Assembly (NCBI GenBank): GCA_036172245.1
Contig: JAYWIR010000008.1
Span: 434,001-498,000, forward strand
Length of the DNA stretch: 64,000 nucleotides
Direction: 5' to 3'
Origin: Raillietiella orientalis
Taxonomy: Eukaryota
The notes beneath the pieces are model-generated. The model was not told the DNA's origin and did no database searches. It worked only from the letters and a program-made list of their open reading frames with translations. Position numbers and translations under genes: made by a program. Below are positions 1,056-60,905 of the stretch, piece by piece (the stretch's first letter is position 1; each line of letters opens with the position of its first letter).

Positions 1056-1232
1056 TTTGCACAGGATGACGCCGTTTTCCAGAACTTCCAGGAAGTTGTC
1101 CGTGGTTACGGGCAGACAGTACAGCTGGCGGAGGCGTTCCGCGAGATCTTCCTTCATGGCGTACAGATATGTTTCCGACGATTTGAACGGTTTGTGTAGG
1201 CGTGGATCCAAGGACAACTCATTGGTCCACAT
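1056..1232 (-). CDS. GAS2L: GAS2-like protein (GAS2L/pickled-eggs family), N-terminal calponin-homology exon
   Basis: Translation [59 protein letters not shown] matches the GAS2L N-terminus ([21 protein letters not shown]...GxxLC). An in-frame GTAATT splice donor follows the K codon at 1056, where similarity stops. Confidence 0.85.
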
Positions 1233-5271: not shown

Positions 5272-5753
5272 AAGTGCTAAAGGATTAGCCGCCTTAAGAA
5301 GGCGACTGGTTCTTAAGGGGGGCTCACGTGGTTCTTTGACAATGTATATGCCATTCGGGGGTGCGTGTTAACTCTTCAAGTTAGAGTTACCCTAGAAGGA
5401 AACCATTCTATGAATCAGGGAAGGCTCCAGAGGAAGGAGTCTATTCCTCTCACTCTTAGGAGGGAAACCTGAAGGGAACCCTACTCTCTGGTTCTCTCCT
5501 AAGGGAACTTCTTTATTCTCTAAGGAGGGATCCCCCGGAGGGGCCGCTTCCTCGAAGGGATCCCGGAAAGGATCCGCTCCTGGAATTTTCTCTCTGAAGG
5601 GAGCCCGCAAGGGGGTCGCACCTTCTTTCCTCCTCTGAAGAGAGCTCCAAAGGGATGCTTCCAATTTCTCTGGAGGACACTCCCCGAAGGGAGCGACGCT
5701 CTTGACACTCTGGAGAAGCAACCCCCCGAGGGGGGCACCAAACTGCTCCATTA
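5272..5753 (-). mobile_element. Element X (SINE-like), 3' half
   Basis: Aligns by eye with 32840-33070, 42930-43240 and 50300-50810 (shared TATGAATC(C)AGG(G)AAGGCTCC and CCCCGAAGGGAG motifs). Directly abuts the LINE 3' terminus at 5754. Confidence 0.75.
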
Positions 5754-6019
5754 TTTTCTCCCGGTCACGCCAGGACGTTAATTGTAAAAAAAAATATTTA
5801 CAAAAAACAGTTATATAAAATGCAAAAAAATGTCTTTCTTGGTAGTGGCTTCACATCACTAATACGAAGGGAAGGCCTCGGAGGCGCTGCTTCTCGTGAG
5901 CATCTGTCTCGATGAGGTCCGCACAGGAGAACTGGAGGAAGGGAAGGGATAAAGAAAAAGGCAAAAAAAACACGAAAGTTCAGTTTAAAAATGTATTGGG
6001 GGGGAGGGAAGGAAAGTAA

Positions 6020-9000
6020 TCAGAGATTTCTTTCCAGCGTCCTCAGCATCCTTTGGAGGATATTGGCAACTTCCTCCATTTGTTGACAGAGGTGTGGCCA
6101 TCCTGTCGCCTTCCTCCCCAGACTTCCTACGCGCCCTCCATCGAGGAAGAGGACAAGAGCCGAATTTCTCGTTAGAAGACCAAAAGATTGACATGACCTC
6201 ATTCTTCGACTGGACTCTTTCGGCGCGACTTCTCGCCGCCATGATCCCACGAAGGCAGCACGGAACTGCGAGGGAAGCTGCAGGTGACATCGAGTTGCGC
6301 GTGAAGAGACACAGCAAAAACCTCTCTGCAGTTGCCCATCGGTAGTGGGAAAACCGGAGCGAAGCATTCCTATACACTCAGGAGGGCAACACTATCCAAC
6401 AGCAGGTGCAGGAAGGTCTCCCGTTCCTCACACCTGGAACAGTCTGGGGCCGCACTTCCTCTTGTCCAGTGGTGGACTCGTGCATTGCATGGGACCTCCA
6501 AGTGCAACCACTGCAATGCTGAGTCTTGCCACTTCAAGGGAAGCTTGGAGCTGTCCACAAACACTGGCGGTATTTCTGCCTCTTCAGGAGGAGTGCCCAA
6601 GAGATCCACTCAGCGACGAATGCCTTTGGGAGGGGCATCAGGGTCACATGCGTCAACTAGTTGACATCCGTTCTTTTTTCCCGCAATCTCGCAGGATACT
6701 TCCCATCTTGCGAGCGCATCTCTATTTCCACTTTGTAGTAGGGTGTCCAGCGTGGACGCAAGTGGGGTGTTCTGCGCCCAGGTGGTCTTCCGTGGGCACT
6801 CCATGATTTCCTGCAGCGAGCAGCGAGCGCAGTTCGAGAATCGCAGGCATCGCGACTGCTCCGGGCTCGTGCCGTTTCTTTCCACCCACGCGGCTCCTGT
6901 TTCCAGGCACTACAGCTGGCGGGCGGCAGGAAATCCATCTGCTTTCCTGCACCAAGGCAACCATTTGCTGGAGTTGGCATTCGCATCGGGGCAACTCTCG
7001 GTGGCCATGCACGAGGAACGCACCGCGTCCCTCTGAGCCGGCTGCTACTTTGGCCAGGAGTCTGCCTGGGACGCATCAAAGTGTGGTCCAGAACTTCGCC
7101 ACTACGGCTAATCTTCTACACTGGAGCTGACGCTCCACCCTCTCCAACGTCAGGACACCGAGTCCGTCGTCCCGGCGCGACGCCCAAAAGTCGGACCTGG
7201 GAACTCTGCGTTTTCAAGAAGGCTTTTCGCAAAAGGTCCTTGGACCGCCTTTTTACATCTCCAGGGTGAAGGTAAACAAAAAGCAGGGATAGGACGAAAG
7301 GAACCACAAACGTGTCCCACAGGACAGATCGTTCCGGAAAAAGGGACCTGTCATTCAAGAATGGACTGAGGGCGATTCTGTCTTTTGGAGGCAACCGGAC
7401 CAGGCAGCTGCTGCGCAGAAGTTCCCCAACGGGACTCGCGGTACTTGAAGCACCTGACTGACCGTTGGGATCCCCATACGGATCCAGTCCTATTGCCCTG
7501 CTCACCCTGCACCAACGGGAAGCACAGTCGACTTGGCCCTGTTTCTACGTCTGCCAGCTCCCCGGTGGATCAGTTCGAGGAATTCTTCGAGCTATCCTAC
7601 CGGGGCTGACTTGGGTAGCAGGAGCAGAAGATCGTCGGCCTAGGCGGACACAGCAGGCGTGCCGGGGCACATGCTGCGAAGGGCATCAGGTGTACACTCT
7701 CAGCACCAGTTCGACTCAGATGCTGTAGAACAACGGGCTCAGGCTGTCTCCTTGCCGAATCCCGTTCTGCACCGGTACGCCGAAGACGTGTCGGTCGCTG
7801 GACAAAACTTATAATCATCGCGTTGCGCCAGTAGGAGCGCAGGTAGTCCAAGAGGACATCCGACAATCTCATGCGTTCCAGAAGCTCCAAAAGGAGCTCC
7901 TGGTCGACCAGTCGAATGCCTTTTGCAACCGCAAGGACTCCTGATGCCTCCGACTCCACATGACCTCTCGATCCCTGGCCATCTCGGAATTCAGGAACCC
8001 TTTGGCTGACTGGCTCAACCCTTTGTTGCGACTGAAGCCAGGAGCTGACCAGGAACGAAGCATGGAAACCATGGTTTCCATGCTTCGTACGGAAACAGCG
8101 TAAGCCTGTTCCGGACTGATGAACGTTTCCGCCAACCGCCCCAGGCGTTCAGTCCATAGCTTCTCGAGCAGCTTGGCGTCCGTGTTGATTACGGTAATAG
8201 GACGCCAGTAGCTTATGTTGCGGAGGTCTCCTCCCATTGGAAGGAGACGTACTCTTGCTGATGGGAAGGAGGCGGATACCTCGCCTGTCTCCCGAATCAG
8301 CGTGCGTATACGATGCACCTGTGGAGTCAGCTCTGCCTCGGAACACTGGCGAAATTCAGCCGGCAGACCATCCTCCCATGCCGTGCTTTCCTCCTCTTGA
8401 GCTGGCCGATGGCGGAGATGTTCGGTGGCGCTCTCCCGTACAAGGAGGAGCAAAATTGGAGCACGATGCATTGTACGTGTGCCGGGGACGAGCGCTCCTG
8501 GCCCTGGTCGTCCAATAAGCTGGTTCCCCTGAGTGCCAGGCTTGTCTCTCAGCCAGATGACGAATCTCTGGCTTTTTCTGAAGCACCGAGCTTGGAGATA
8601 CGCGCGCTCATCGCGCATTCCCTCACCAACCCGGCGGAGGATGGGGGGGATCTACAGGGAACCCGTGCAGAACTCTCGAACCGAGCACTTCATCTCGTCC
8701 TAGTTTTCGAGTTGCTGCACGTCTGCATCTCGCAGGAAGCAACAGAAGTGTTCCGCAGCCTCTGGGAGGTGGGGCTAATGCCTTGGTAGGTGCCGCGAGC
8801 TGCAAGAGGGATCATTCCCGCGTGGAAGTACTTCCAGCTCAATTCGGTCGTGATCCGACAACGTAGTTCTCGACTTTCCACAATAACCGATCCGCGCCTG
8901 CAGGTGGTCGTCGAGGAAGACGTGATCGCTGCTGCCTTCCATGCCAATGACCCCAGTCAGCAAGTTGCACGTGTGCATTGCTGCGCACATCTTGTTAACC

Positions 9001-9534
9001 AGGTTGAGCTGGCCACTACACCTTCCTGAAAGCAAGGTGATGTTGAAATCTCCCACTATCATGTGGACTCTTTGCACGCCTACTTCCACCAAACATTCGC
9101 GCTTCGGGACTTCGACGAATCCGGTCCTCGTCCCGCTCATGTTGGATCCTCTTGGTGCGTATATATTGGTCACGAAAAGGTCGATCGATTCGGACCATTT
9201 GAGAACGAGTTGTCCAACTCGACCTTCCTCATCGAACTGAACGTCTCGTACGGCGCTCTCCATGGTTGGTTTCAGCGAAAAGGCGACCTCTAACGAGTGC
9301 GTCGAGCCGAGCCCGCAACGCCCATGCAGCTGGCCGCCTCCGATCGCTTCAATTCCCTGGATCTCTTCCGCAGAGATCTTCTCTCTTGGAGATCTCTTGC
9401 AGAAACCCCAGGTCGAACCGTCGCAAAGAGGCAGGTGCGTCCCGTCTCCTGCCGTCGTCGCGCAGCCCGTTGACGTGCCACCAGGCTACACGTAGTCTCC
9501 GGAGGGGGCCGGGAGCACGCTTGACTCCTGGCAT
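6020..9534 (-). pseudogene. LINE ORF2 (APE endonuclease - reverse transcriptase - zinc finger), many stops and frameshifts
   Basis: EN motifs LRVAWWHVNGL, FLQE, NIYAP, VGDFN, SDH. RT motifs YWRPITVINTDAKLL, LQKAFD, GIRQGDSLSP. YADD is mutated to TAG-GCC-GAC-GAT at 7643-7632. C-terminal CSRC...ETFLHLL. Confidence 0.9.
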
Positions 9535-9599
9535 GTCGTACTGCGGTTCCCACCAGGTGCTCAGGCGGGATGGTCAGTGATGAAGGAGATAAAGGGATG

Positions 9600-11066
9600 A
9601 TCTTTTTCTATCTTCTGCTCCTCCACCTTCTGTAGTAAAGGATCCTTTCCTAGCAGAACTCCTTGGAACCAGCATGCATCCTCTCGGCTTCTAGAGCTGA
9701 TGCACCCTTTCCCTGTAGGGATGCATTCTTCCTCGGGGCCTTGGGCCTCTTTAAGGAGGTTTCCGTTGCTTCCGAGTCTCTTCTGGAGCTTACCTTATCC
9801 AGGCCGGAGTCGAAAGCCATGCTGAGTTGCCTTCACAGCGGGACGCCTCACAGCCTTGCTTTTTTTTTTTTTTGAGGCCTTTACTTTCGAAAGCGCTGGC
9901 GTCACCACCTTCTCCGAAAAGATGGCAGCAGCGCTGCAACAGCCTCCGTCGCTATTGATGGGCTCGTCGATCACGCTTTTCAAGGCTGCTTCTCACGCTT
10001 TTCACGACGCTGTCGATCGTATCGTCGATCGCGCTAATCTGCTGAAGTGCCGCCTTGCGGTCCTGCGGCTGCCTAACGGTCGCCTCCGCGTTGTCGCGAT
10101 TTTTTTCGGCTTTGGGAGGTCTCTTGCTTTTCTTTTTCGGTTGTTACCACTTGCCATCCCGTTTCGTCAGTCACAACTTCCACTCTTTTGGAAGTTCGCT
10201 TCGATGAATTCTGGTTGGAGTGCGGTGGGCATCCTTCCTTCCTCCTTTTGCTTCCGTTCTTTTCCTCGCGCTGTCTCTTCTGTTTTGTGCTCGGAACTTC
10301 ACGGACGAGTCTTCTGGGGCACGCAAACGTCATAGGGCCTCCAGTCCGTTGCCATGGCAAGTAATTTCTGGACATCTTCCCTTCAGGCGCCCTGTCCCAT
10401 TGCAATGACTGCATAATCTCGGTTCTCCGGGCAACCAGAGATCGGCGTAAAGTTCCCCGATTTCCATCCGGTAGGGAAGCTGCTTTCCTTCGTGTACGGT
10501 CATGCGTGCTGCAACCAAGCCGCTATACAGTCCCTTATACCGGGGAGCAAGTCTGGTTTGGCTCAGTACTCGTGGGCCGTCGCGTATTCTTTGAGCTGAC
10601 GGAGGACCTCACGCACGTCCATCTGCAGCCGTAAACCTCGTGGGTAGACCACTCCTGAGTGGTCCCCCATTCTAGTATAGAGCCTCTTGCCTTCGATGGT
10701 TTTGGTGGTGTTCAGCAGTCGCTGAGCAGAAGCTGCCTCTTTGCAGATCAGCTCAACAACTTCTCCCCCGCTCGCCACAGAGAGTCCTTCGAGGTATTCC
10801 TTCTCGACGATCGCGTCTCGTGACCCCTCCTCAAAGGAACGCGCAATGGACGCTAAGCCTAATGGACTTACCTTGTAGAGCAGGACGGGACGCTAATTCT
10901 GGGTCACAAATGCTTCCGTTTCTGCCTGGTTACCGGTCCCTGGCAGCCGACACCACTTTGCTCCATCCTCGGAAGCGATAGCTTCCGTCTCCATCGGGAT
11001 TGGTGGTGAAGTATTCGCATCACCTCCGCCCTCCATAGCGGCAACTATGTTTGGCATTTGTGTCAT
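9600..11066 (-). pseudogene. LINE ORF1 (RRM-like region + CCHC zinc knuckle + K/R/S-rich tail), frameshifted
   Basis: GVVYPRGLRLQMDVREVLRQLKEY... and GLVAARMTVHEGKQLPYRMEIGELYADLWLPGEPRLCSHCNGTGRLKGRCP (CX2CX4[H>R]X4C), as in Tx1-type ORF1. Confidence 0.75.
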
Positions 11067-11159
11067 TACGCTGCCACATCCACAACCACCATACAACTTT
11101 GAAGAAAAAAACAAAAAGAAACGCACCACTCGTTGAAATTGGCGGAGCGTCGCGAAGCG

Positions 11160-11235
11160 CGTTCATCCTTCACGGGTATTCGAACCCGCAACCTTTGGTG
11201 CCGAGTTCGGAGAACGTAGCCACACTTCCTCCAAA
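11160..11235 (-). promoter_or_regulatory. tRNA-like head with Pol III B-box-like motif (same head as element X)
   Basis: Minus strand GGAGG..GTGGCTACGTTCTCCG..GGCACCAAAGGTTGCGGGTTCGAATACCCG forms a T-arm-like stem. Same motif at ~25105, ~32563, ~44610 and ~51135. Confidence 0.55.
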
Positions 11236-14200
11236 GAGGACAAGCCAAAATCTGCCGCCACTTCTGAGAGAACGAGGAACATCGGTGCAAGATTTGAAAA
11301 GTTCGCGGATCTCCTCAGAACAGTGGGCGAATCGAGCCAATACATAACCATGAAACATAACCTTGAGCTACCATTATCAAAACACACCCCATCCTTCTGA
11401 TAATCCATGCTGCGTAAATTGGTTCAGTGGACGTGTATGGACAAGACATGGCATATGAAACCAAACCGGCTCTGATGAGCAGCAACCGACTCGAAACACT
11501 CCCCCAAAATCTCGAAAACACCGGATCCGATGATTTCTCGCTTTCTCTGTAAAGCGAGTTGCAGAACTGCAGAGCTTTTCCTGCCGAATGGGCAGCGAAC
11601 CTCTGGGCCTGCAGCAGGAGACCGAAAGCAGGGATGCAACTCGATCTGATCTGGAATGAAGAGGTTCTTTTGAGCGGCCTTCTCACACGAACCACCAGCG
11701 ACTGCTTCAGGGAGCCCACGGCAACGAAGCACAAAGATGGGAAGTGTCGCGCGTGTGCCATGAGAGCCCTTTTCCTCCTCTGCAAAGGAGAAACTGCCAT
11801 GGGGAAAAGCAAGAAGTTTCCTCGGCAGGACTGTGGGCACAGGGATGAGACTTGGAAAAAGGTGTGTAGGCAAGCCAAATACCAGGGAGCTCCGACCTAA
11901 GCGTAAACGGTGCGAAAGGAGCCTTCAGGATAAAAACTGTTTACGTTCCAGTATGAAGTGTATTTCCATGCGTGGAGCTGCAGTGGTTGAAACAACGATG
12001 CCTTCCTGAGGAAAACGACAACCGGTTAGAGGTTAATGTGTGGCGTCAGCTGATATGTTTCCGGTCATCGGCAATCGGCAGAGTTCCAGGCAAAACAAAT
12101 GTCTGCAGGTGGCAGGCTTCAGAGTGCACTGATGGATGTGACTGCCTGGAAACGTTCCTGCATTTCTGGACGCAAAACAGGCGACTGTGATCGTGTGACG
12201 GACTCGGCGAAAGTCGAACGGGAAAAGGCCTTCAGGCTTTTTTGTGAAGGAAAGGGATGGTTGGCTTTTCATCCTGGTGGACACTTTGAGGATACGCCTA
12301 CGAGCTTCATGCACGGTGAGGATAGGCTGCGAGGCAGAAGCGCTTCTGCCCCGCAGTTCGGAGCCCACGTTTACCCCTTCCACTAATACCACGGAGGCAC
12401 CTGGGGTAGGCCCTAGCAAGCCTGAGATAAGCGGAGTGGGGGAAGGAAGTATCTCGTGCACCACCCTTACCTCGTGCAGGAGCATTCCTCCTGGACTCGA
12501 ACGCTAAACAGGAAGGAGCTTCCCAACTGCAGCTTACATCCCTTCGAGCAGCCAAATGTTTCGGATGGGATCCTTCTGCCTTGAGGCGCGTTCGCGAGTT
12601 CAGCGATCCGCAGTGGACAGAGGAACCTGACCAGGCGCTCCAAGAGAGCGTGCGCTTCTGCAGCTCAAGAGGGTCCATGCGTTCCCCATTGCGACGTGCG
12701 TGTGGAGGAAAGGAAATTCCAGCTCTGGAAGCAGCTTAGCAACCCTCAATTCGGGTAGTCCATAAGAAAAGTTTTATTTTAGCCACAGTTCCGAAGCCGA
12801 TCGCACCGAGATCCAAGGAGGCGGGATCGAAAAGACCACCATTTTCAGCGGACGGCTTCATCTGGATAATAATTGCTTGAAGAGACTTTCCCATCCAAAG
12901 AAGAGCCGGGTGAAAGCCGTGATGCTTGCGAAAATCTGCTTAGGATTCAGAACCACAGATTTCAATACGCAAAACAAAGAGAAGAAGAGTTGCACAATCA
13001 ACGTTCCAAGTTCCTTAAAATCTCTGGAAGAGGAAACAAAAAAAAACAAAAGAAGAAACTGTGAGTTGTCATCCGGAGTCATGTGTTGCTACTTGTACGA
13101 AATTTATGGATTTTGTACCAACTCTCATTCCTTGGTATCGAATCTTGCTCATTACAGCACCTATGAATGTACATGTCTATGAATGCCCCAGCTCCCTAGG
13201 TGCTACAGCATCTAGGACGCTGGAGCATTCTTCCAGCGATTTTGGAAACACCGGCCCGCAAAACTCGAATGCAACGTGATGGAAATTTTTAGACCGTCAG
13301 AGGTCATTCTTTCGGTCTGGGTTTTGAGCCTCCAACGTGACAGACACTACATGCACTCGTGGTGCATGAAGAGTGCGGAAAACTGCTTAACATTAGTGGT
13401 TCATATCTCTGTCCGGTACGTGCCGGTGGTACAGAAAGACACCCATTCCAAACACCAATACGCGTACATCGCGGAATGCCACCTTACGATCACGGATGGA
13501 TCTGCTGTAAAACTCGCTTCATCTAGACAGAGGTACTGCATTCTTGAAACGCAGTCTTTGTCCATCTTTGGACAACAAACCACAAGGGTTGGAAAGGGAA
13601 TCCCCAAAGGAGGAACTTGCCAGAGCGGGCTTCCAGAAGGGAGGTTCGCCTTGCGCACCGCTGTTCATTCGAGCACCGCGAAGTTTCCGCACTGCTCACA
13701 CGCGAGCACCGCTGCAAAAAGGGAAGCAGCGGCACGCTGGCCTTCGATCTCCCTTGGCCCCCAGGGAAAGGCAACCGTTACTATCTCTTCTCAATCGCTT
13801 CGAGCCGGCAACGTTTCAGTTTCTCTGACCGGGGTGTGAATGACTCATGCAACCCATACATACCCAAACAGCTGACGGAATAGATCTCCCAAAGACAGGA
13901 ACCTCAGGAGAAAAAAATGCCCTAAAATTTTGAGTAAATCATTCAGGATCTTTTGCAGTCCCTCAATAAGCTTGGAACCAGAAACTCCCAAGGAGCATTC
14001 AGGTGCCAGGTCACCCAGAATATTGGAGCTCCCGTTCACAGCCTCGCTTAGGGAACTGGGCAGCAGGAATGCAATCAGAGATCATTATGCACAGGTCACA
14101 GCCATCGTTACCTGAACCTTTCCTGAATCTCCATTACCTCCGAGGGAAAGAGTTCATACTGCTGCTGCTGTTTCGTAGTTCCGGAGACAGCGATACCTAA

Positions 14201-24974: not shown

Positions 24975-25582
24975 CATGGATCACCCGTTCGGGAGTTTCG
25001 CCACCCCCGCCGCAGATCACACCACCTCCTGTTCTACCTTGTCGTTGGACCCGCGTCGGAGGCCACGTAGCTGCTGAGGTCTCCGCAAGGCGTGGCACCA
25101 GGCATCGCGGGTTTGAATACTCGGAAAGGATGGACGACGAGAATGGAGGGTGCGTCATGGGTTCGAGTTCCTCCTACAAGATGGCGCTGGTTGGCCGGCA
25201 TTGGGTGCGGCACCGGTGGCGATTAAAAATGGATACCCCCGTTGAGTGGCCGGGAAATGGGAGTCGACCTCGGGTCCTTCCAGGAAACACAATCAAGGAG
25301 TGGAAGTTCCCCTCCGGTTGTTCAAGGGAACGCACCCCTTCGTGGGGGACCCTCGCCCCATGGAGGAGGTGCGGTACCTCTCCAGAGCGCAGAGAAAAGT
25401 GCCGTTCCCTTCGGGAAGCGCCCCTCTGAATTTCAGAAGCGTCCCTTCGGGGTTCCCTTCAGAGGAGGAGTAAACAGGAGCAGGTTCCCTCCGGAGAAGG
25501 AAAAATGGAGCTGACCCCCCCGGGGTTCTTTCGGAGACAACCAGGTGGGAGGCTCCCTTCGTCGATCCCTTTCCAGGCGTGA
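24975..25582 (+). mobile_element. Element X (SINE-like), head and body, cut by a LINE 3' end
   Basis: GCGGGTTTGAATAC head, CAAGATGGCGCTGGTTGGCC and CCCTTCGGG repeats; colinear with 32520-33080 and with the reverse complement of 50480-51250. Confidence 0.8.
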
Positions 25583-27324
25583 TTTCACACCCAGGTACGC
25601 CGGGAAGTTTATTCTGTTACAGGAATCGACGGAGCCAATGGCCCACCAAATCCCATTGTTACACTAGAAAGAAGGGGGGCAGCCGGAGAGGTCCATCACA
25701 TCCACGAAGGGGGAGGGGCGATGAAACAAAAATATAAAATGAAAACAAACTATAACAAGCAACCCAAAAAAAAGAAACAATAAAAAAAAAATAATCAGTT
25801 GGGGGGAAGGGAAGGGATCACATTTGGTGGTGGGTGAGACCTCTGAATCAGTTGAAGGATGCCGGCGAGCTCCTCCTTCTCTGTTTCCAGGTGTGGACCC
25901 CTCAAAGCCATCTGCAGGAAGCGGATGGCGTGCAGGACAGCCTCCCCGTAGCTCCGGCCTCTCTCGGCGTCGCACTTCGCCGGGACGACACCACACACGC
26001 AGCACAGCACTGTGATTGCGGCTGCGGTCGTCATGGCGTCCCGTCCGAATAGGGGCCTCAAAGAGTCTCCGGGACCGCCCACGGGGTGGAAAGACGCAGA
26101 GAAACGTTCCCACATGGGTTCGAGTGGAGTGTGGCGGTGGCGCACTGCACTATGAGGTGGGGAAAGGTCTCCTTCTCTCCACACCTGCCACAGTTCGGCG
26201 ATGCTCTTCCCCTCGTCCAGTGGTGCCGGCGCGCATTGCACGGGAGACCCCCAATGCAATATCAGCAGCGCCGATTGCTGCCACTTGAGATGAAGCAGTT
26301 TCCTGTCCATAAACGAGGGGGAAAATTCCAACTCTCCGGGCTGAGTGGAGAAGAGTTCGCTCAGACGTCCCAGTCCTTTGGAGATGGTTCTTGCTGTTGC
26401 CGTGTCAGCCAGCTGTCGCATAGTCCAACCACCGACAGGCTTATTGCGGGCTGAGATCTCGCAGGAAACCTCCCACTTCGCCGGTAGGCAGATGCCATGT
26501 ACTCCGACAGCGGAGGACACCGCTTCAGCGAAGGGGGTGGCTGGTGGGTAGGCCAATATGGTCAGCTCACTACCCACCGTCTCCAGTGTTCTTCTGCTGT
26601 TCCTCTGAAACTCTCGGCAGCGGGTAACTTCCGGCGGGTCCGAGTGAGCTGGGTGCACATCCTCACTTTCTTCTGCCGCCAGGCCGGAGTATTTGCAGAG
26701 CGGCAGCAAATCCACGTGTTCGCTCTCACCAGAGCAGCGACGCACTGGTGGGGAAAACCTCAAGGTGGAGCCGGCAGTGGTGGCGCGCAAACAGGTTGTG
26801 AGTCCTTCTCCGCCTACCATCAGCCTGGAGAGCAAACGTGAGGGGGCGCACCAATGGATGGTCCAGTTCTGTGACACGAAGGCCAGTCTTCTGAAGTTCA
26901 TTTGAACTCCTTGGACTGCCCAGTAGTCCAAGTCCTTCTCAAGTGATGATGTAAGTCCATGCCCTGCAACATTCAAACGCCGAGTCCTGGACCCCTTTGG
27001 GACGCAAAGAAAAGGTTTAGGCGATCGCGGGGCACTGCACTACCCGGCGGTGCTTCTTGGGCGAGGGCGTCCATCTTCACGCATCGCTTCATCTTGCGGG
27101 ATCCAAACAGGGCGAAGGATCCCGAAGCTGCGAGTCAGCGGCGACATCGCAAATGAAGGTCCCGTTCATCAGGCAAAGCTTTCCACCTCGCAAGGGTTCA
27201 GGACTCCGCTTCGCAGGGACATGAGAGGAAGCATGAGAGGACGGCCTGCTGGCGAAATCCCCTCAGCGCTTCGAGGCAGAGCTGACCTCTTGATGCTGAG
27301 TCTCTCTTTCGACACTGAGTAGGC
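25583..27324 (-). mobile_element. Tx1/L1-like LINE 3' half
   Basis: LHLKWQQSALLILHW / PCNARRHHWTRGRASPNCGRCGEKETFPHL; T-rich UTR; terminus AATAAA-CTTCCCGGCGTACCTGGGTGTG-AAA at 25613-25583. Confidence 0.85.
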
Positions 27325-30176: not shown

Positions 30177-33100
30177 TAACCCGGTGACGCCGGGGCGTTT
30201 CTTTCTTAAAAAGGAAAAGAAAAGCAAAAGGTCATGTGGATCAGTAAATCCATTGGTCTACGAAACATTCAGGGCAATCGGTCAAAAAGAAACAGAACCA
30301 CCGATCTGCAGGGCGGATACACAGAAGGGTGAGGAGGGAGTGACTGAGGGACAATAATGAGAGGGAAGGGACGTAGGGTCACCTGCATGCGATGTAGACG
30401 GCAACCTCCTTCACCCTGACATCCTTCAAAGGCCATTTTGGTACATCCCTCAGCACTGAAGAGTTGAGGCGAGGTCTTTCTTCCTTGTTGGGTGCTTCCT
30501 TAGTATGACTTATCAAAACGATCTCCCTGTCGCAATGTACAGAATTAGGGTAATCGGGGAAGCAAGCGAAAACCCGGCCGGGGTGAAGCAGCGCCTCAGA
30601 TGCTCTCCTGGAGCGTCTTCGGGTCGGAGCGGAGCAGTCACGAGGCCTTTCCACGCCCTCCGAAGGTCACTGCATTCCAACAGCAGATACGAGCAAGCGT
30701 CCAGCTGGAGCAGCTGGAGGAGATGATCCCACTCGTCCAGCGATGCCACCGCTGGCTGCAGGGGGAAGTCCCAGTGGACGAGCAGCAGCAAGGCTTCCCT
30801 CACTCCATCTGAAGGAGGGAAAGCTCAGAGCTGTCCAGGTAGAGGGGAGGGGTCGCGATCTCTGACGGAAGAGCCTGCAGCTATTCTATCCAACGGAGTA
30901 GTTCTCCAGCCGTGCACTGGGCGTTCCTCGCCAGCGTTCACCGAGGCGGGGGGGGGGATGCTAGCTTCGAACTGTAGAAGGCGTTGTGATGGGAAGGCGT
31001 TGTGAGGCACTCCCTCGGGGGACACTAGCCTCTGAGGCCGCGCACTCTACCTGCACTCTTGGCCGTAGGAGCGAGAAGTTCGCTACCGTCTCATTTGGGG
31101 CTCCCGTTGAAACTCGGGTGGTCCAGCGCGCTGCCTGCGCTCCAGGCGTTCCTCTCTCTCGGAATTCTTGCCCTTTTAGGGAAGCATATTGCCGGCCAGA
31201 GTGTGCAGGAACGTCTCCCCAAAGCCCTGCAAATCTTGATTGGGAACAAGATGGACGAAAAGCGTGGCAGGCTGGGCCCGCTAGCTTGCCGGAACGTCAG
31301 TGCCCACGAATACTGGGCTGCTGCAGAGAAAAGCCGCATTGTGCGGGGGTACCAACCCTTGTACTCGAAGACGCCACCGCATGGCGACTTGTTCTGAACG
31401 CTTTTATCCTGAATAACTCGACTATTTACTGGAAATAAATAACTGATGAAAAGAAATGCAGTTAGAGGACGACTTGCGCAGGTTGGTTCCAGTTGGGTTC
31501 GCTTTCCTGGAGGCAGAACCAAAGCGAGAGGGGGAAGATGCGTGAATTGGGTAAACGAAATGGACCGGCTACGTGGCACTGAACGTGGATTCTAGAGGAC
31601 CTGATATGGCTAGGAAGAGATCGAAAGGGAGTCAGTTCCCCCATTTCGGGGCTGGTGTGCCCACTGTCTCCCCAAAGTTTCCCCCATCCCGCCTCGATCA
31701 TTGTCGTCTTCCTTCCCACGTAGGTCGATGGCGATTCCAAGCGGCATCCTCGGGTCTTGGATGGCCCACCTGCTGGGTGCACTGAGAATCAACGGCCCTC
31801 TCTCCGTTCTGGCGCTCAGCATGCTGGCACGAGGCGCAGAAGTGACGTCGACTGCATGCCACCGAGGAGAGGCGAACAAGTGAAGAAGCAACGCCTGAGG
31901 GTTGGCATCAGAGAAGGGAAGCGCCCCACTGAGGGAAACCTCTCTGCCCTCTCAGCCATCCCTCCGCTTTGAGCAAGCCCATATGACCACTGCTTTCAAT
32001 CCCTCTCATTGGGTGCACCCTTTGGGCAACCTCCCCTGATGAAACTAAGTGACCTCATTTTCAGGGAGGAGCCAGAGAATCACGTAGTGCACAGAATTAT
32101 GGAGTCCACACGGTGAACGACGAGGAACTGGGACAGTCTCTGGAAGTCCTGAGAAGCCCTTTGGGTGGGGCTTCTTTAGCTAACTAGGACATTTGCCATA
32201 GGGAGGTGGGCTGGATAGCTCTGGATTGCAGGAAATTCACCTGCCACGCTCTTCACCTTTTCTCCATCCCACCTATACCGTAGGGGACGCATGGTCGTGC
32301 GGAGCTCTGGGAGGCAGGATGGCATCGAAGAGAATCTCTCCGAGCGGGGATAGATGGCATTGCTGTTGGGGATAGTCAGACTTTCCGAGCTCCTCCGCGT
32401 TTCCAGGGAGTCCTGCCAAACGTTCCTGTTCCCCGAATAGCAGAATGCCTCCACTCCTGCTCCTCTACCTGCAGCGCTGTTGAGCAGCCCGGACAACGCA
32501 GACCTTGTCCTCGTGTACGTTTGCGGCAGTGTGACTGCGGTCTCCATGCATCATACCAACCGTCGCGGGCTCGAATACCACGCGGGGAAGCATCGACGCA
32601 AAGTACGGGGGGGCTTCCTGAGTTTCGAGCCCCTTCCCTTCCGCACGATGACGCTGGTTGGCCTGTAGGTTCCGGGTACGCCGGCGGCGGCAGTCCGATG
32701 CCTACGTTGACTGGCCGGGATCGGAAGTTGACCCTCCGACGTTCTTCCAGGAATCAAGGAGCTGAGTCCCTTCGGTATTCCCCTTCGATTGTGCAAATGG
32801 ATCCGCCCCTTTCCAAGGGTAGACCCTCCATCGCGTACCAGGAAGCAGGTCGATACCTCCCTCGGGGGATCGCCTTACCAGAGTGTTAAGAAGCGCACTG
32901 TTCCCTTCGGGGAGCTCCCTTCAGAGAAATTTGGGAACGTCCCTTCGCGATTCTCTTCAGAGGGCGAAACGAGGAGCGGATCCTCTTCGAGGGGTCCCTC
33001 CAGAGAGGAAACGAAGAGTGGGGGCTCCCTCCGGAGAGAATAAGGAAAGGATTCCTTTCGGGGTTCAATTCGGAGACAGCGTTCGGCGGCAGCAGTGCTC

Positions 33101-34280
33101 CTCACGAGAAGGGCACTTGACAGCAGTCAACCGCCGAGGTGACAGTCTCCTGAGAGATTGCAGGCAGACGGAATTTGGTGAGCGGATAAACCAAGGGGCA
33201 GCTGGAGGATGCTGCGACCCCGAGTTCCTTTCCACGAGGACTACAGCGCTGGGGCGAGCCGCTCGGTATTCTTAGCGAAGACTGGAATGGCCCCCAGCGC
33301 TCAAGATCAGCAGCGCCCTCGCCCTCAAGTGGCAGCAGTCGGCCCTTGTGCTGTTGCACCGGGGTTTCTTCCTTGCAACGCGCGCCGACACCACCGGACG
33401 CTGGGCAGGGCGAGCCCGGACTGTCGCAGGTGCGGGGCACGGAAATCCCTCCCGCACCTGCTCGTGGACCTTGTAGCCTTCCAACCCTCATGGGAACGTT
33501 TGGGAACGACTCCGCATCCTTTTGAGGGACGGGTCCTCTGTGTGCGGGACGCCCTGCAGCGCTTTGCCGCATCCGCGGGGTTGTGGCGGCCTGGAGCGAA
33601 ACCGACAGAAGAAGGAAGGAGAAGGACGTTACCGAGTGTGCACTTCCTCTTTCTGCGGCTAACGACTGGATGCTGTCCCGCCTAACACCTATCCGAGAGG
33701 ACCCAGCTGGCATCCCAGAAAGATGAAGACTTTCTCCAGGAGACGGTGGTTCCCCCCCGACCGTTTCAAAGATTTTTATTTGCTTTCTTTTGGTTTTCTC
33801 CCCTCCGCCTCCGCTGCCGAGGGGAGCTGGACGGCAGACAGGCTGGACCGTGTGCCGTCTTGCGTTCAGGCTCGAAGCACAGGTTGAAGAGTATCGGGCG
33901 TCAACCCGCGGCCTTTCTATTGAATTCCCCGTCTGGCCTTCAGGTCATCGGTGAGGAGACCGCTGATAAACATGCAGATTTTCTCCTTGTGCTTGGATAG
34001 GGCAGGCAGCGTAGGACGCTGGCTGGGAAGCCAAGCCGTTCCAGCATCTTTGGATGTCCTGGCCCATGCAGTGGACTGTCTTCCTCAGGTCTGTTGCGAG
34101 GGCTCTCTTCCTCGGTGCTTTCTTGTGCCATAACTCTCGCACAGCTCGGGCGTGACCTTTTCTCGCACAGTCCGAACTAGGGACATCAGGATAGAGCAAG
34201 TGGGCACCCAGGGTTCTTTCCAGGGTTGCGTAGGGCTCGCTACGCATCCTATCACTTGCACGATTCGGCCATTCCACCTG
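30177..34280 (-). mobile_element. LINE RT-to-3'-end, interrupted by the 1311-bp insert at 32518-33828
   Basis: ATDLRKTVH; MLERLGFP; FISGLLTDDLKARRGIQ; PILFNLCFEP (34130-33850). Resumes after the insert with Y(T/E)DKVCVV (YADD region) and LLLVHWDFP. Terminus AAGAAA-CGCCCCGGCGTCACCGGG at 30203-30180. Confidence 0.75.
32518..33828 (+). repeat. Left arm of a 1311-bp near-perfect inverted duplication (X head/body + LINE 3' fragment)
   Basis: Reverse complement of 43357-44667 (coordinates sum to 77185). The ORF track is mirrored. About 6 substitutions seen, near 32528, 32546 and 33754-33766. Confidence 0.97.
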
Positions 34281-42650: not shown

Positions 42651-43008
42651 TCGCATCCTTGACTTTCAAATCCCCGCGGACAATTCGTACTCCATGCACA
42701 GGAGTTTCTCTGCTTGGAAAAAAAACCAACAAACAGAAACCTCCGAAATCACAAACATCAAATCGTTCAGTGCCACTTTTCACGAGGCTAAAATTGGCTA
42801 AAATTAAGACATCATCACTGTGGTTTCTTGCATCCTCATTTCCTGTTTATTTTTTACTTTTCTGTCTGTCAAATGCTAAAGAATCCTTCCCTTCCTCTAA
42901 TGGGGCCCATGAAACTCTGCTGTCTTCGCCTTCCGAAGGTGCGCACAATTCTTCAGGCTATAGCGACCACGGAGGGATCATCCCATGAATCCAGGAAGGC
43001 TCCGGAGG

Positions 43009-43156
43009 TTGCCACCCGGATATGCCGGGGCGTTTATTTAAACTTTACAAAAAAAACATGGTACAAGGCCCCACTAACGGCCAACACAACACGGACTTGC
43101 CGGGTTGCCGGAACGCCGACCAGCGTGACTCTCCTTGGCGGCGCAAGGGGGATCGG
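43009..43156 (-). mobile_element. Short 5'-truncated LINE 3' end with degenerate 15-bp TSD
   Basis: Terminus AATAAA-CGCCCCGGCATATCCGGGTGGC-AA. Flanks are GGAAGGCTCCGGAGG (42994-43008) and GGAAGGTTCCATAGG (43157-43171); this sequence is single-copy in X at 5419-5433. Confidence 0.75.
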
Positions 43157-43242
43157 GGAAGGTTCCATAGGAAGGAGTCCGTGCCTTCCACGCTTGGGAG
43201 GAAACCCCAAAGGGAAACCCCTCCCCCCCTGACTGCCTCCGA

Positions 43243-44105
43243 TTTCCACCTGGACACCCCGGAGCGTTTATTGAAGTTTGAAAGGAACTCACCGATTGTG
43301 GAAGGGCACGTGGAAGGGACGACACGGACCTGCCGGGTCGCCGGTGCGCAGACCGGAGCTCCCCTCGGCAGCGGAGGCGGAGGGGAGAAAACCAAAAGAA
43401 AGCAAATAAAAATCTTTGGGACGGTCGGGAAGGAACCACCGTCTCCTGGAGAAAGTCTTCATCTTTCTGGGATGCCAGCTGGGTCCTCTCGGATAGGTGT
43501 TAGGCGGGACAGCATCCAGTCGTTAGCCGCAGAAAGAGGAAGTGCACACTCGGTAACGTCCTTCTCCTTCCTTCTTCTGTCGGTTTCGCTCCAGGCCGCC
43601 ACAACCCCGCGGATGCGGCAAAGCGCTGCAGGGCGTCCCGCACACAGAGGACCCGTCCCTCAAAAGGATGCGGAGTCGTTCCCAAACGTTCCCATGAGGG
43701 TTGGAAGGCTACAAGGTCCACGAGCAGGTGCGGGAGGGATTTCCGTGCCCCGCACCTGCGACAGTCCGGGCTCGCCCTGCCCAGCGTCCGGTGGTGTCGG
43801 CGCGCGTTGCAAGGAAGAAACCCCGGTGCAACAGCACAAGGGCCGACTGCTGCCACTTGAGGGCGAGGGCGCTGCTGATCTTGAGCGCTGGGGGCCATTC
43901 CAGTCTTCGCTAAGAATACCGAGCGGCTCGCCCCAGCGCTGTAGTCCTCGTGGAAAGGAACTCGGGGTCGCAGCATCCTCCAGCTGCCCCTTGGTTTATC
44001 CGCTCACCAAATTCCGTCTGCCTGCAATCTCTCAGGAGACTGTCACCTCGGCGGTTGACTGCTGTCAAGTGCCCTTCTCGTGAGGAGCACTGCTGCCGCC
44101 GAACG
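43243..44105 (-). mobile_element. 5'-truncated LINE 3' end with 10-bp TSD
   Basis: PCNARRHHRTLGRASPDCRRCGARKSLPHLLVD; terminus AATAAA-CGCTCCGGGGTGTCCAGGTGG-AAA. Flanks CTGCCTCCGA (43233-43242) and CTGTCTCCGA (44106-44115). Confidence 0.85.
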
Positions 44106-44667
44106 CTGTCTCCGAATTGAACCCCGAAAGGAATCCTTTCCTTATTCTCTCCGGAGGGAGCCCCCACTCTTCGTTTCCTCTCTGGAGGGACCCCTCGAAG
44201 AGGATCCGCTCCTCGTTTCGCCCTCTGAAGAGAATCGCGAAGGGACGTTCCCAAATTTCTCTGAAGGGAGCTCCCCGAAGGGAACAGTGCGCTTCTTAAC
44301 ACTCTGGTAAGGCGATCCCCCGAGGGAGGTATCGACCTGCTTCCTGGTACGCGATGGAGGGTCTACCCTTGGAAAGGGGCGGATCCATTTGCACAATCGA
44401 AGGGGAATACCGAAGGGACTCAGCTCCTTGATTCCTGGAAGAACGTCGGAGGGTCAACTTCCGATCCCGGCCAGTCAACGTAGGCATCGGACTGCCGCCG
44501 CCGGCGTACCCGGAACCTACAGGCCAACCAGCGTCATCGTGCGGAAGGGAAGGGGCTCGAAACTCAGGAAGCCCCCCCGTACTTTGCGTCGATGCTTCCC
44601 CGCGTGGTATTCGAGCCCGCGACGGTTGGTATGATGCACGGAGACCGCAGTCACACGGCCGCAAACG
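43357..44667 (-). repeat. Right (donor) arm of the 1311-bp inverted duplication
   Basis: Reverse complement of 32518-33828; clearly continues into its own LINE 3' UTR on the inner side and apparently into the X head on the outer side. Confidence 0.97.
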
Positions 44668-47559
44668 CGAGCCCCTCAGGCGATGTGTGTGACATTCTCG
44701 GGGTAATGAGCTACAATTTAGATGGAATAGAGAAGTCTACTTTGAATGAATCTCGATAATAGTTCCTGAAAGGTGCTGACCTAGAAGATTAATTCCCAAA
44801 AATAGATCATTGCCTGTGAATTGAGCGCGTGTCAGTAAAGAAAACTGGAATAGGGCCATAGAAGAACGACTTTATAGTATTTGGTTACCGTCTAAGAAAT
44901 GAAGCGAAATTTCCAACTTATCATTCAGTTCGTGTTCATTCATCACACGCTATCTATGAAAAATATCTATGCGATTTCATGTTACCATTAGAATTAAATC
45001 GTATCCTTTGGTAACCGCATTCCTCTCAAACCCTGAATAGATGCTCGGCATCCTGAGACCTGATGGATGCACTGGATCACAATTATTGGCAATTTCCGTC
45101 CACCCACTAGAAGGAAAGAGGGAAAGAAAATGGAAGTGGAGATCTAAATTTCATCATTCAATGTCGAATGAGGTCCTGTTGTTCATTTTTTTTTTTTTGA
45201 ATAACAAAGAAAAATGAACAGCTGATGTGTGCAGAACATCCCGCTTGCAACGGAGGGGAGTAGTTTTCTGCAGAAGCTGACGTGGGGGACTGCCCATTTC
45301 AGGAGTCGATGAGAAACCCACACGCGCACTCTGTCCTCCGTCCGCCGGCTGATGACGTGCAGCGTGTGGACTTTCATGAATGCACTGCGCGGCGCTCTCT
45401 TCTTCGCACAGCGAGAATTTGGGCTGCCTCTTCTTCATGCGAGGAAAAGTTAAGATAAAGTCTTCCAGCACATGTCTCGTAGAGAGGTCGATACTGCTTT
45501 TGGAATTACCAGCTACCACATCTGTAGTGTTCCTTTCACAATAAGACTGGTTGGAGAATCGCTAGAAATCGAGAGTGCACTGACGTGTTGCTCTGGCAAA
45601 AGTGTTGTGGGCAGGTGCAATGGGTTATGAAGTGAAAAGAGGTGGCTGGTATTCAGGGCCTGGATTTCCGAACGTGTCTGGGATAACCGGCGTCTATGTC
45701 CTGTTATGGCATCCCATGCGGCCCAGTGAGACCAGTGATGTGCCAGGAGGTCATTCCAGCTGTATGTGTGTTGGGCGGTGAGACGATTGACTTACGATGA
45801 TGAGGTAAGGTTGCGAGAGAAGGATTCCGGCAGTGGACCTTCATGCTATGCAGACAGACTGAGGATGGATGCAACAAAGAAAGACGTCGAAGTTATCAGT
45901 GAGGAAGTGAACTTTAGATGAAATTTCGATTGATTGGCAAACTGTGTCCTCTTCCATGCACTGAATACCAGTCAGCATCTTTTTCTTTTTTTTTTTTTTA
46001 ACAAGGAATCGTTGGTTTGATTCTGGATCCCTCCTGGGTCAATTGGATCTCTGGCCTCAACTACAACTGGTGTGGCTTGTCTAACAAAAACGGTTAAAGG
46101 AAATAAAAGACCAGAAACAGTTTTTCTTTTCTTTGAATACAAGGGCTACACGATGTTCTCGTGACGATGGCACGAGGACACCAGGAGGTTTTGCTGCCAG
46201 ATGCTGAGCGTGAGGTCATGAAGTGAAGTTCCACATGCGGAACTCCTGGATAGAGTGCACGGTGCCAAGGATGTGATAAGTTAAGTACGTGCAAGAAGAC
46301 TTCGATGGCGTTCGACGGCGAGCCTTCCCATGACTTCACAGATGGCAAATCTACTGAGCAAAAAGTAGGCCCTCTAGCTACTCCAGGGAAAGCGATGGGG
46401 ATGCAAGTGGTCGTTCCAAGAGAAGTTTGGAATTCACGGAGAGAATTTTGGATTTCATATGATCTCTTGGGCGTTCGAAGAAAAAAAAGCATCTGTTTGG
46501 ATATGTCCGTGTAACATTGGGATACGATGAAGATATATACGTATAATGTGGACCCATTCAAGTAGATATAGACAGAAACATGATTTCTGTTGAAAGTCAT
46601 GGGTTGGGTTCGGAGTGGGGCTTACAGTGACAAGAGCTCCTTAGTCACTCCAGAACAATGGTGCGTTAGGGAGATGCTGAGAATGGTGGAAAGTTCCATC
46701 ATTCCAGCTGTTGACAGTGGTGCAACACTGAAATTCGTTTGGTCCTCCGATGCTCGCTGTCTCCCTTGATCTGAAGATGGAAATATCCTTTCTCGAGTAA
46801 TAATCATCAGTGGTTTGCTGTTTATAAGGATCCCACGCTTAATGAAACTAAAGGATTTTCTAATCCTTCCACACACTGAGGTAACTTTTAGATGACAGGC
46901 GGTGGTTCATTTGTTGTTCTATCAGAGATCAAGAAGTGTATGCCTAGGAATGACTGTGAAGCTTCTCCGTCTGCTGCTGTCTGGTGTATGATTGACCATT
47001 AAATCAAGGCAGATGAAGAATCCGTTTATTTGCCTATGAGATGTCGGACACTACGCAGTGGTTTCAACAAAAGTTCTTCGTCACCTATGAGATGCGGAGG
47101 AAGGTCCACACTTTCATGGATATTCTTCTGCATAAAGTGGGAGTTCTTAAGTTCAGCCTATTAGGACGAGGGTCAAGAGCCAGCACCCTGAGAGTAAAAT
47201 TTCTCGCCGATCTGGTCGCAGAATATTCTGGAAAGGCGAGAGAAGGAAAGGTGGATTTCAAGTGTTCTCCCTGATTTCGAGAGGAGAAAGGAGTTCAATC
47301 CAGTAGGTCTGCCTGAGCGATGCGCGCTTCTTGCTGATTTCTGTTAGTTTCGACAGGATGTGGCTTGCAAGGAGGGACAAAGTTCACAAGGAAGGAAGAA
47401 ACACTGTAGGATGAAACAAGAAGAGCGATAGTCGATAGCATTCGAGGAAGTTGATCTCACGGAACGATCTCTTCCTTTCACGATCTCTGGAAACCGCTGC
47501 GATCCAAAGGGAATGAGAAACCTAAAATAAGTGAAAGAAGGATAAGAGAGGAGCAAAAA

Positions 47560-50237: not shown

Positions 50238-51290
50238 CTTTTTTTCTTTTTGTTTTTTAAGAGTTTTCTTTTTTTTTTTGGTTCGCTAAGTACCTCAGAG
50301 CCGGTCGCGTGCCTCGTGGAGCACGTGGCTCTTTTAAACACCTGTTTTGTTTCCACGCCTCTCCCCTGCGACAACCCCTCAGGGGGACGTGTAATTCTTC
50401 AGTGTAATTCTTCAGGATAGGGCACCCCGGGATGGGAGTCCGCCCTATGAATCCAGGAAGGGCTCGGAGTCCGTTCCTTTCACTCTTGGGGAGGGATCCC
50501 TCCCGGACGGGGGGGATCGCACCTCCCTTCCTGGTTGTCTCCGAAGCTCCGAAGGGGAACCCCGAAGGGAATCTCCTTCCTCATTCTTTCCGGAGGGACC
50601 ACCGGAACCCGAAAGGGGGGTGGTCCTCTCCATTTCATCTTCTCCGGAGGGAACCTGCAAGGGAACCGCTCCTGTTCACTCCTCTGAAGAGAACCCCGTA
50701 GGGACGCTTCCGAATCTAAGAAGGGAATCTCTGCAGCTTCCTGCAGGGGATCGCTCTCGCTTGCTTCTTTGCTCTCTGTGAAGAGGCGACGACTCGGAGG
50801 GTCCCCCCTCAAGAGGGTGGGGGGACCCTCCTAGTTCCCCTCTCCTTTGAACAACTGGAGAGGTGCCCGTGAGGACTCCTGCACCATCTTGAAACCGGAG
50901 GGGTCCCCCGGTGAAGGGGGGGTCCGCTCTCCGTTGCACGACAGGAGGGGGAACTCCCCACTCCTTTATTCCTGGAAGGACCCGAAAGTAGACTCCCATT
51001 GTTCCGGCCTTCATCGGGGGCCTCCGGCTTAATCCACCGCCGGTGCCACGCCCGAATGTCTCGGCCAACCAGCGCCATCTTCCAGAGGAAACTCGAAACT
51101 CGACGACGCAGTGGCGTCCGAGTTTCTGCCGAAGTATTCGAACCCGCTACGCATTGTGCCACGCGCGGAAGCCTTAACCACAAAGCCTCCCTCGGGGGCT
51201 TTGTGGTAGAATTTGATAGAGATTTTGCTGCTTGTGGCGTATGTCCTGCACGTTCTTTGGACTGGTTTCTAGATTTTCTTGTAGGTGTGC
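50238..51290 (-). mobile_element. Element X, most complete uninterrupted copy (tRNA-like head, hairpin-repeat body, A-rich tail)
   Basis: Minus strand GTGGTTAAGGCTTCCGCGCGTGGCAC...GCGGGTTCGAATAC; AAGATGGCGCTGGTTGGCC; CCCTTCGGGG repeats; ends CTTAGCGAACC then an A-rich tract (50279-50238). Confidence 0.8.
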
Positions 51291-59817: not shown

Positions 59818-60400
59818 CTCTGCCCGTTTGTGGCCAGAGACGTCTATTGAAAAATAAATAAACTACAAGGTAGAGGGGGCAGTGTCTTTTGATACAAGAG
59901 AAAAAAAGTTTACTGGGAATGACCACCGACACTCAGGCCGGCTTTTAGAGAAGTTCGGAACGATAAGGAGGCGATAATAATAAAAAAAAAAAAAAGTAAA
60001 AAGAAACAGGAGGGCAGAGACTTTGGTATCGAACGCTCTTCGTCCCTAAAATAGGTTCCGCTATGGTGGCGACCTCCCTAGCGACTTCATATTCCGGGTG
60101 AGGCCACCTTGCAGTCGTCCTCATCAAGGCGGCTTCCATGCTGGTGGCCTCCCTTCGCGGCGAACGAGACCCCACCATGGAACGGGCTGTGAGGATGGAG
60201 CGGATTCAACAGACCGTTGCGATCGTGGCGCCCGCCCTCAGCCTGCCCTCAGTGAAGAAGCGCCATAGGAAGTCCGGGTGGCGGGCGGAGCGCCGAAAAG
60301 AGTGTGCACCACGTGCCTTCCAGGATGCTGTAGTGCAGCGGGAGTTGCGGGAACGATTCCATCGCCTGCACCTGGTTTCTGGGGGAGGCAGCTCCCCCGG
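59818..60400 (-). mobile_element. LINE 3' fragment (same subfamily as 27325-28100)
   Basis: Shares ATGACCACCGACACTCAGGCC and CCATGCTGG.GGCCTCC.TTCGC with 27449 and 27876; decayed terminal signature at 59848-59818. Confidence 0.75.
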
Positions 60401-60820
60401 AAACCAGGTATCTACGATGCAACCATCGTAGACACCTGGTTGGAAATGCCCATTACAGAAACGGAAGAACATGCCGTTCCTACCGGAGCGGGAACACGGA
60501 GGTGTCCAAGGGAAGGAACCCCGAGTTCTTCGGGGGACACACAAAACAGCAAGCACCAAACACCAAATACCTGCTTGTAGACTGTGTTGCTCTCTAACCC
60601 CTGTGGTTGCTCCACGCAACGTCCCTTGGGGCATCAAAGAACAATCCCAGAGACGTGCTGAAGCGCCTCTTCGTGCTCGATGCCCTTTCGTCTGCCGCAT
60701 CCCTAGCAGCTCCTTGCTGCCTACGAGGGGTTGTGGCGGTCTGAAGCTACGCGACAGAAGGACGGCGCCATAGGAACGTCATCTGCTTCGTCCTGAGCTC
60801 TAGATGGGCCCACCTGGGAC

Positions 60821-60905
60821 ATACTTAGAAGGAACTTCTAAGGAACTTAGAAGTTCCTTCTAAGTATACTTAGAAGGAACTTCTAAGGATACTTAGAAGG
60901 AACTT
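60821..60905. repeat. Fold-back/tandem array of a 22-bp unit
   Basis: U = ATACTTAGAAGGAACTTCTAAG arranged as U, GAA, reverse complement of U, U, partial U. Confidence 0.95.

Follow-up and report, generated by a model that had tools for sequence, protein, structure and literature searches.

A long tRNA-like SINE family with a hairpin-module body in Raillietiella orientalis, and a LINE that lands in its older copies

A repeat that recurs in a 64,000-nt stretch of the Raillietiella orientalis genome (GenBank assembly GCA_036172245.1, contig JAYWIR010000008.1, positions 434,001 to 498,000 of the forward strand; this whole stretch is referred to below as the window) is very probably a tRNA-Arg-derived SINE of ~1,075 nt, built of modules and spread by target-primed reverse transcription (TPRT), whose older copies are the landing site of an L1/Tx1-like LINE. 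An initial annotation of the window had described an unusually long SINE-like element, and this description was borne out by a sharp shared 5′ end, a tRNA-like head, TSDs, poly(A) and a high copy number. Given the single 5′ G, the resemblance of the head to tRNA-Arg(CCT), the TSDs and the poly(A), the family therefore behaves as a SINE.

We located the copies in the window by self-BLAST and with two models, one of the head (R1) and one of the body (R2). The four copies and one duplicate described earlier were all present. R1 matched at 25050-25343, 32518-32814, 44371-44671 and 50915-51198, and R2 at 5472-5729, 25366-25572, 32863-33065, 44120-44322 and 50519-50789. The hairpin motif CCCTTCGGG occurred 7 times in the window versus 0.81 times expected, with 6 of the 7 occurrences inside SINE copies.

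Copy 4 (minus strand, 50239-51199) belongs to a young subfamily and has an intact 5′ end, which we moved from 51290 to 51199, the 5′ G common to the family. Its tRNA-Arg(CCT)-like head (51128-51199), which agrees with the genome's own tRNA-Arg(CCT) in 41 of 64 columns, contains an extended 9-bp D-arm hairpin (51167-51190) and a B box (51134-51144), and is followed at 51087-51118 by a second hairpin and a degenerate second copy of the T arm/B box, which in older subfamilies is a clear GGGTTCGAGTTCC. The body (50420-51060) consists of bulged hairpin modules of 35-45 nt with purine-rich linkers, one 44-nt module being missing. All of these features lie on the minus strand, as does the CTTAGC plus A-rich tract (50239-50290) at which the copy stops, at consensus position ~972 of ~1,075. 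The tract had been taken for the end of the family but is internal; full copies extend ~110 nt beyond it, and copy 4 lacks this final stretch with its conserved terminal hairpin, as well as poly(A). The head consensus quoted in the initial annotation describes the older subfamilies and not copy 4, the copy that had been flagged. At its 5′ junction (51180-51208), copy 4 also carries a short piece of its head sequence in inverted orientation.

LINE insertions have broken up copies 1, 2 and 3. Copy 2, of a middle subfamily (plus strand, 25049-25582), is cut at 25583-25614, where the 3′ end of a LINE lies antisense. Copy 3, an old one (minus strand, 42845-44672), is broken by a LINE fragment (~44095-43243) and by a second LINE 3′ end (43009-43038). 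The body and 3′ part of copy 1 (minus strand, 5272-5753) adjoin a LINE 3′ end at 5754-5783, and a SINE head at 11159-11238 (minus strand, model positions 4-83) is probably the head of this copy, separated from the body by ~5.4 kb of decayed LINE. That LINE (5754-11150, minus strand) is apparently full-length, and ~200 nt of SINE are missing at its site. The recent duplicate reported at 32518-33080 is indeed a duplicate. It is part of a 1.3-kb inverted duplication in which 32518-33828 (plus strand) is 99.5% identical to 43357-44667, 10 kb away; the duplicated segment takes in part of copy 3 together with its LINE fragment, so it did not arise by a separate retroposition.

Elsewhere in the window we noted a cluster of short palindromes, perfect or near-perfect and 40-66 nt long, at 60370-60905, and an exon at about 1050-1232 (minus strand) that groups with calponin-homology clusters. 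The exon, which we take to be GAS2-like, was the sole trace of a host gene seen in the window.

We searched the 210-Mb assembly (491 contigs), whose tRNAs look like those of an animal, with copy 4. There were 3,036 first-look candidates, of which 40 were scored, and the best matches shared one start: in the 30 loci fetched, similarity begins at a single G that corresponds to window position 51199. The young consensus measures ~1,075 nt, poly(A) not counted, and individual copies show 28-73 mismatches to it. Full copies end in a conserved terminal hairpin, TTT(T) and poly(A), and the hairpin is kept in the oldest copies too. Head motifs counted with one mismatch allowed, which gives lower bounds, numbered at least 524 for the young type (controls, 0) and at least 649 for the older type (controls, 5).

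Poly(A) was reached in 12 of the 30 young loci, 17 stopped early and 1 ran into the end of its contig. Of the 17 early-ending copies, 6 have a TSD that overlaps or adjoins an internal A-rich tract. Exact TSDs of 9-15 nt were present at both ends in 11 loci. The other 19 had no exact TSD of at least 9 nt, and some of them showed, by eye, shorter or one-mismatch repeats; 2 of the 30 loci share a flank with a third. When 20 loci were anchored at the tail instead, the head was kept in 14 and the copy was 5′-truncated in 6, and TSDs were seen in 2 of the 3 such loci viewed. Judged from the sequence, the TSDs, poly(A) and 5′-truncated copies establish that the family spread by target-primed reverse transcription.

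These ends also bear on two other classes of element. A MITE or other DNA transposon would fit the many internal palindromes, but the young copies have neither terminal inverted repeats nor a TSD of fixed length (the range is 6 to 17 nt), and they carry a poly(A) tail and are truncated in a polar manner; the ends refute this explanation, to which we give practically no weight. It is very unlikely that the element is a non-autonomous LINE derivative with bipartite UTRs, or an ordinary LINE 5′ UTR. LINE-derived bodies are common in SINEs according to the part of PMC5786205 consulted, and one SINE head adjoins a LINE 5′ end at 11150. Against this, copies end in poly(A) and a TSD rather than continuing into ORF1, the body model has no match in three whole units of a tandem LINE (see below) or in the full-length LINE of the window, and the tail was not joined upstream to ORF2 in any of 20 tail loci. 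The earlier observation that no ORF is conserved between copies is in line with a non-autonomous SINE. The young consensus does hold an open frame of 212 codons, frame-shifting indels occur between copies, and the family evidently encodes no shared protein. Scanned with Pfam, 95 of the window's 117 frames gave no match at all.

Two SINE loci contained traces of other RNAs. One old copy (L151) harbors a U6-like 5′ fragment, and a U2 5′ fragment lies in the flank of locus L003 (3592-3649; Rfam, E 0.0026), which is also flanked by an inverted 15-nt duplication. Such fragments are typical by-products of L1-type enzymes.

The head matched the genome's tRNA-Arg(CCT) at 64% of the 64 columns, a 4-nt insertion included, the best result among 30 tRNA genes scored. 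Arg(CCT) was still best, by eye, when 26 further tRNA genes were aligned; six longer Ser, Leu and Tyr genes were left out of the comparison. The oldest copies retain a canonical B box, GGTTCGAATCC, and the 3′ strand of the acceptor. The D arm is lengthened to 9 pairs, and the second hairpin with its T-arm-like copy, clear in older copies, has decayed in young ones. ARAGORN gave no match on the element. Of the 4 copies in the window, 2 carry the motif AAGATGGCG, read earlier as a YY1 site. Genome copies in the alignment have it in 4 cases of 40, and we rejected it as a conserved part of the SINE.

Counted by eye in the young consensus, the body comprises about 14 related modules of 35-45 nt, spaced 40-45 nt apart. 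A module reads GGAG, bulge, CCC-loop-GGG, CCTCC, and the linkers between modules are rich in purines. The UUCG hairpins reported earlier do exist, as TTCG loops, but TTCG is only one of several loop sequences, which include TTGC and TTTCC. Tandem Repeats Finder did not detect the array, returning only a 13-nt duplication and A tracts. Exactly one 44-nt module is missing from 5 of 13 young copies, window copy 4 among them, and the body thus evidently gains and loses whole modules. In a 40-row alignment whose differences we read by eye, the copies fall into three successive subfamilies (oldest, middle and young), the older ones being about 0.8-0.9 kb long and 60-78% alike to the young. To judge from this alignment, successive master elements replaced one another.

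A single-lineage succession of this kind would also be left by a host Pol III noncoding RNA gene with a tRNA-like leader, similar to 7SK or BC1, whose retrocopies were dispersed and whose array binds many copies of one protein. The length, the terminator-like end and terminal hairpin, and the frequent 3′-truncated copies, which resemble the tailless retropseudogenes described in part of PMC5322556, all fit such a gene. We nevertheless consider it distinctly unlikely. Rfam 15 gave no match at its gathering score in the window, and nothing it returned for 6 loci at E values up to 10 overlapped the element; there are thousands of copies; divergence between the subfamilies amounts to about 25-40% and includes whole modules, which is fast for a host RNA; and a succession of SINE masters yields the same pattern.

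The element had also been called highly structured. As regards predicted folding this stands, since a 990-nt copy folded at a z of -4.24 in the sense and -2.01 in the antisense direction (20 shuffles each); as regards selection, the case consists of a handful of subfamily changes. We analyzed 52 pairs, drawn by hand, in 40 copies; the structure was derived from the same 40 sequences, and related rows inflate the counts. In total, 83.8% of cells were paired, versus 41-53% when partners were slid. Two-sided changes were found in 38 cells versus 22.4 ± 4.7 expected, while the other measures were unremarkable: pairs with a two-sided change numbered 12 versus 14.9 in shuffled data (454 of 500 shuffles), the covariation score was 0.155 versus 0.147 (29 of 500), and further pair types did not stand out. 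RNAalifold was unsupportive. On a head alignment of decayed copies it found 5 pairs only, which is uninformative, and on the terminal hairpin its covariation term was unfavorable.

The structure signal comes from about seven subfamily-level events. Changes that preserve pairing occurred at columns 20-30, 21-29, 251-262, 306-331, 16-42, 17-36 and 117-153, with 306-331 appearing as A-U, G-U and G-C in 10, 20 and 8 rows, respectively, and 251-262 changing from U-A to C-G. Young copies have lost pair 246-274, and the middle subfamily has a mismatch at 20-30. Together these changes offer modest evidence that suggests selection on the fold of the master elements.

It is quite possible, although we lean the other way, that the hairpins of the same SINE are incidental, a GC-rich palindromic unit having expanded in the manner of a minisatellite and folding without selection. 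The modules resemble one another and come and go whole, the antisense strand also folds below its shuffles, three of five covariation measures are unremarkable, and RNAalifold finds little. What speaks against incidental hairpins is that two-sided changes occur in helices that are not repeated (the D arm and helix 243-277) and track the subfamilies, that one change passed from A-U through G-U to G-C, that even the oldest copies still have the terminal hairpin, and that the sense strand folds better than the antisense. In our preferred reading, it is most likely the element that benefits from the hairpins, which would stabilize or help to package its very long Pol III RNA, and selection on them is most likely weak, acting on master copies only and not for a host function.

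LINE tails ending in AATAAA cut 3 of the 4 window copies. The abundant LINE family to which such tails belong ends in AATAAA and a small hairpin, a motif found 1,769 times in the genome (control, 0), and 4 of the first 30 genome tails of this wider family lay antisense at one SINE site. Among tails ending in GGTGTCAA, 18 of 30 adjoin the 5′ part of the SINE at model position ~170 and 12 do not; these 30 were sampled from 90, and the selecting pattern contains one target base, a mild bias. The 3′ part of the SINE was on the far side in 15 of the 18. The exact LINE-SINE junction occurred 128 times genome-wide (control, 0). Insertions of the targeting LINE have TSDs of 14-15 bp, with one nested repeat insertion visible, and in its decayed frames we saw motifs of RT and, toward the C terminus, CCHC-like ones. 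We take it to be an L1/Tx1-like LINE subfamily that prefers one site and lands antisense in older SINE copies. The four LINE insertions in the window itself all lie elsewhere than at the position ~170 site. Near position 670, a second target site was not established: 2 of 24 tails lay there, including one from the window. Separately, 5 of 30 LINE tails share similar flanks, 4 of them antisense in the apparent endonuclease-coding part of another LINE, which reads as a second target-preferring LINE subfamily.

We found no junction of the targeting LINE with a young-type site, which is uninformative because the copies of this LINE are old (about 80% alike). A more elaborate account would make the modular array a selected, multivalent protein scaffold, for the element or for the host, with a LINE arms race at one helix from which young copies escaped by a compensatory U-A to C-G change at the end of the target site. 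We regard this as unlikely.

Under our preferred reading of a TPRT-spread SINE, RNA polymerase III would transcribe the element from its internal A and B boxes, and the transcript would stop at TTT(T) behind the terminal hairpin and receive an A tail. No T4 occurs inside the young consensus or, in the single full copy scanned, on the sense strand, an absence not far from chance. An ORF2 protein of the L1/Tx1 type would then prime on the A tail. For about half of copies it would instead use single-stranded, A-rich stretches inside the RNA that base-pair with the target.

Among the LINEs of the genome are open APE-RT elements that are most similar to human L1 ORF2p. Neither a tail shared with the SINE (stringent tails are covered in PMC3747384) nor SINE body sequence was found in a tandem LINE or in the AATAAA-hairpin family, two 3′ ends having been viewed for the tail; a C-closed tetraloop hairpin in the tails of both SINE and LINE was too weak to count as shared. 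We infer poly(A)-type priming by an L1/Tx1-like protein. The tandem LINE is a young family whose ORF2 measures about 1,200 aa and most of whose copies are 90-99% alike. On contigs C71, C33, C114, C53 and C139 and on small contigs, its units repeat head to tail every ~5.5 kb, in many cases close to a contig end. This LINE ends in AATAAA and a hairpin without poly(A), and is possibly self-targeting or subtelomeric.

Taken as a whole, the family stretches the size of known tRNA SINEs by about 400 nt, its three subfamilies with their module gains and losses form a natural series for testing RNA-structure selection in SINE masters, and the junction counts show across the genome how often a LINE has landed in a SINE. 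Under the plain reading alone, annotation gains one more well-defined repeat family. Our full-text searches, which took in neither Repbase, Dfam nor subscription journals, listed no publication that describes this family, a SINE as long as this one or a Tx1 that targets SINEs.

The targeting LINE resembles the target-preferring Tx1 LINEs (Tx1 in Tx1D, Tx1-Mar, Keno and Tx1-9_AMi), as described in part of PMC4494074, in inserting at one position and in one orientation within another repeat with ~15-bp TSDs. By that source's measure, more than 20% of flanks in one target, the targeting LINE had 18 of 30 and the wider family 4 of 30. The targets that the consulted part names for Tx1 are DNA transposons, LTR elements, snRNA, 5S, satellites and microsatellites, whereas here the target is a SINE.

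The early-ending SINE copies are like the tailless retropseudogenes outlined in part of PMC5322556, which arise by internal priming, are 3′-truncated, carry TSDs and end at internal A-rich single-stranded sites. Those are occasional and come from therian mammals, while here 17 of the 30 top young copies end early. Like B2, Dip and Ves, which are T+ SINEs, the family has a short, copy-variable T-run remnant of a terminator right before poly(A). T+ SINEs, reported only in mammals in the portion of PMC8466645 consulted, have AATAAA before the T run; this SINE has a hairpin there instead, and since it has the T run and no AATAAA before the terminator or poly(A), it falls outside the T+ class.

The closest parallel for the body is CHRS, a quasi-oligomeric SINE family in which, as characterized in part of PMC3531059, a degenerate motif is repeated more than 10 times in variable number. 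The likeness, drawn from the description, lies in that repetition; the CHRS motif is ~20 nt, whereas the unit in this SINE is 35-45 nt and forms a hairpin. More broadly, the family shares with tRNA SINEs whose body is of obscure origin, as set out in that part of PMC3531059, a tRNA-like head, internal boxes, a non-coding body, a tail, TSDs, more than 100 dispersed copies and subfamilies. It differs from the 175 families of 75-662 nt counted there for SINEBase in its ~1,075 nt, its second B-box-like unit and its ~14 hairpin modules. Against the SINEBase criteria in the same source, it is a non-autonomous retroposon with TSDs, a tail and no shared ORF; its 524 plus 649 head motifs exceed 100 interspersed copies; and its tRNA identity, 41 of 64 positions with the 4-nt gap included, is narrowly above 60% over at least 60 nt. 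SINEs are held there to less than 1 kb, typically less than 700 bp, which the young elements exceed and the older ones, at ~0.8-0.9 kb, do not. On this comparison of sequence features, we judge that the family works as a tRNA SINE, a long variant within that class.
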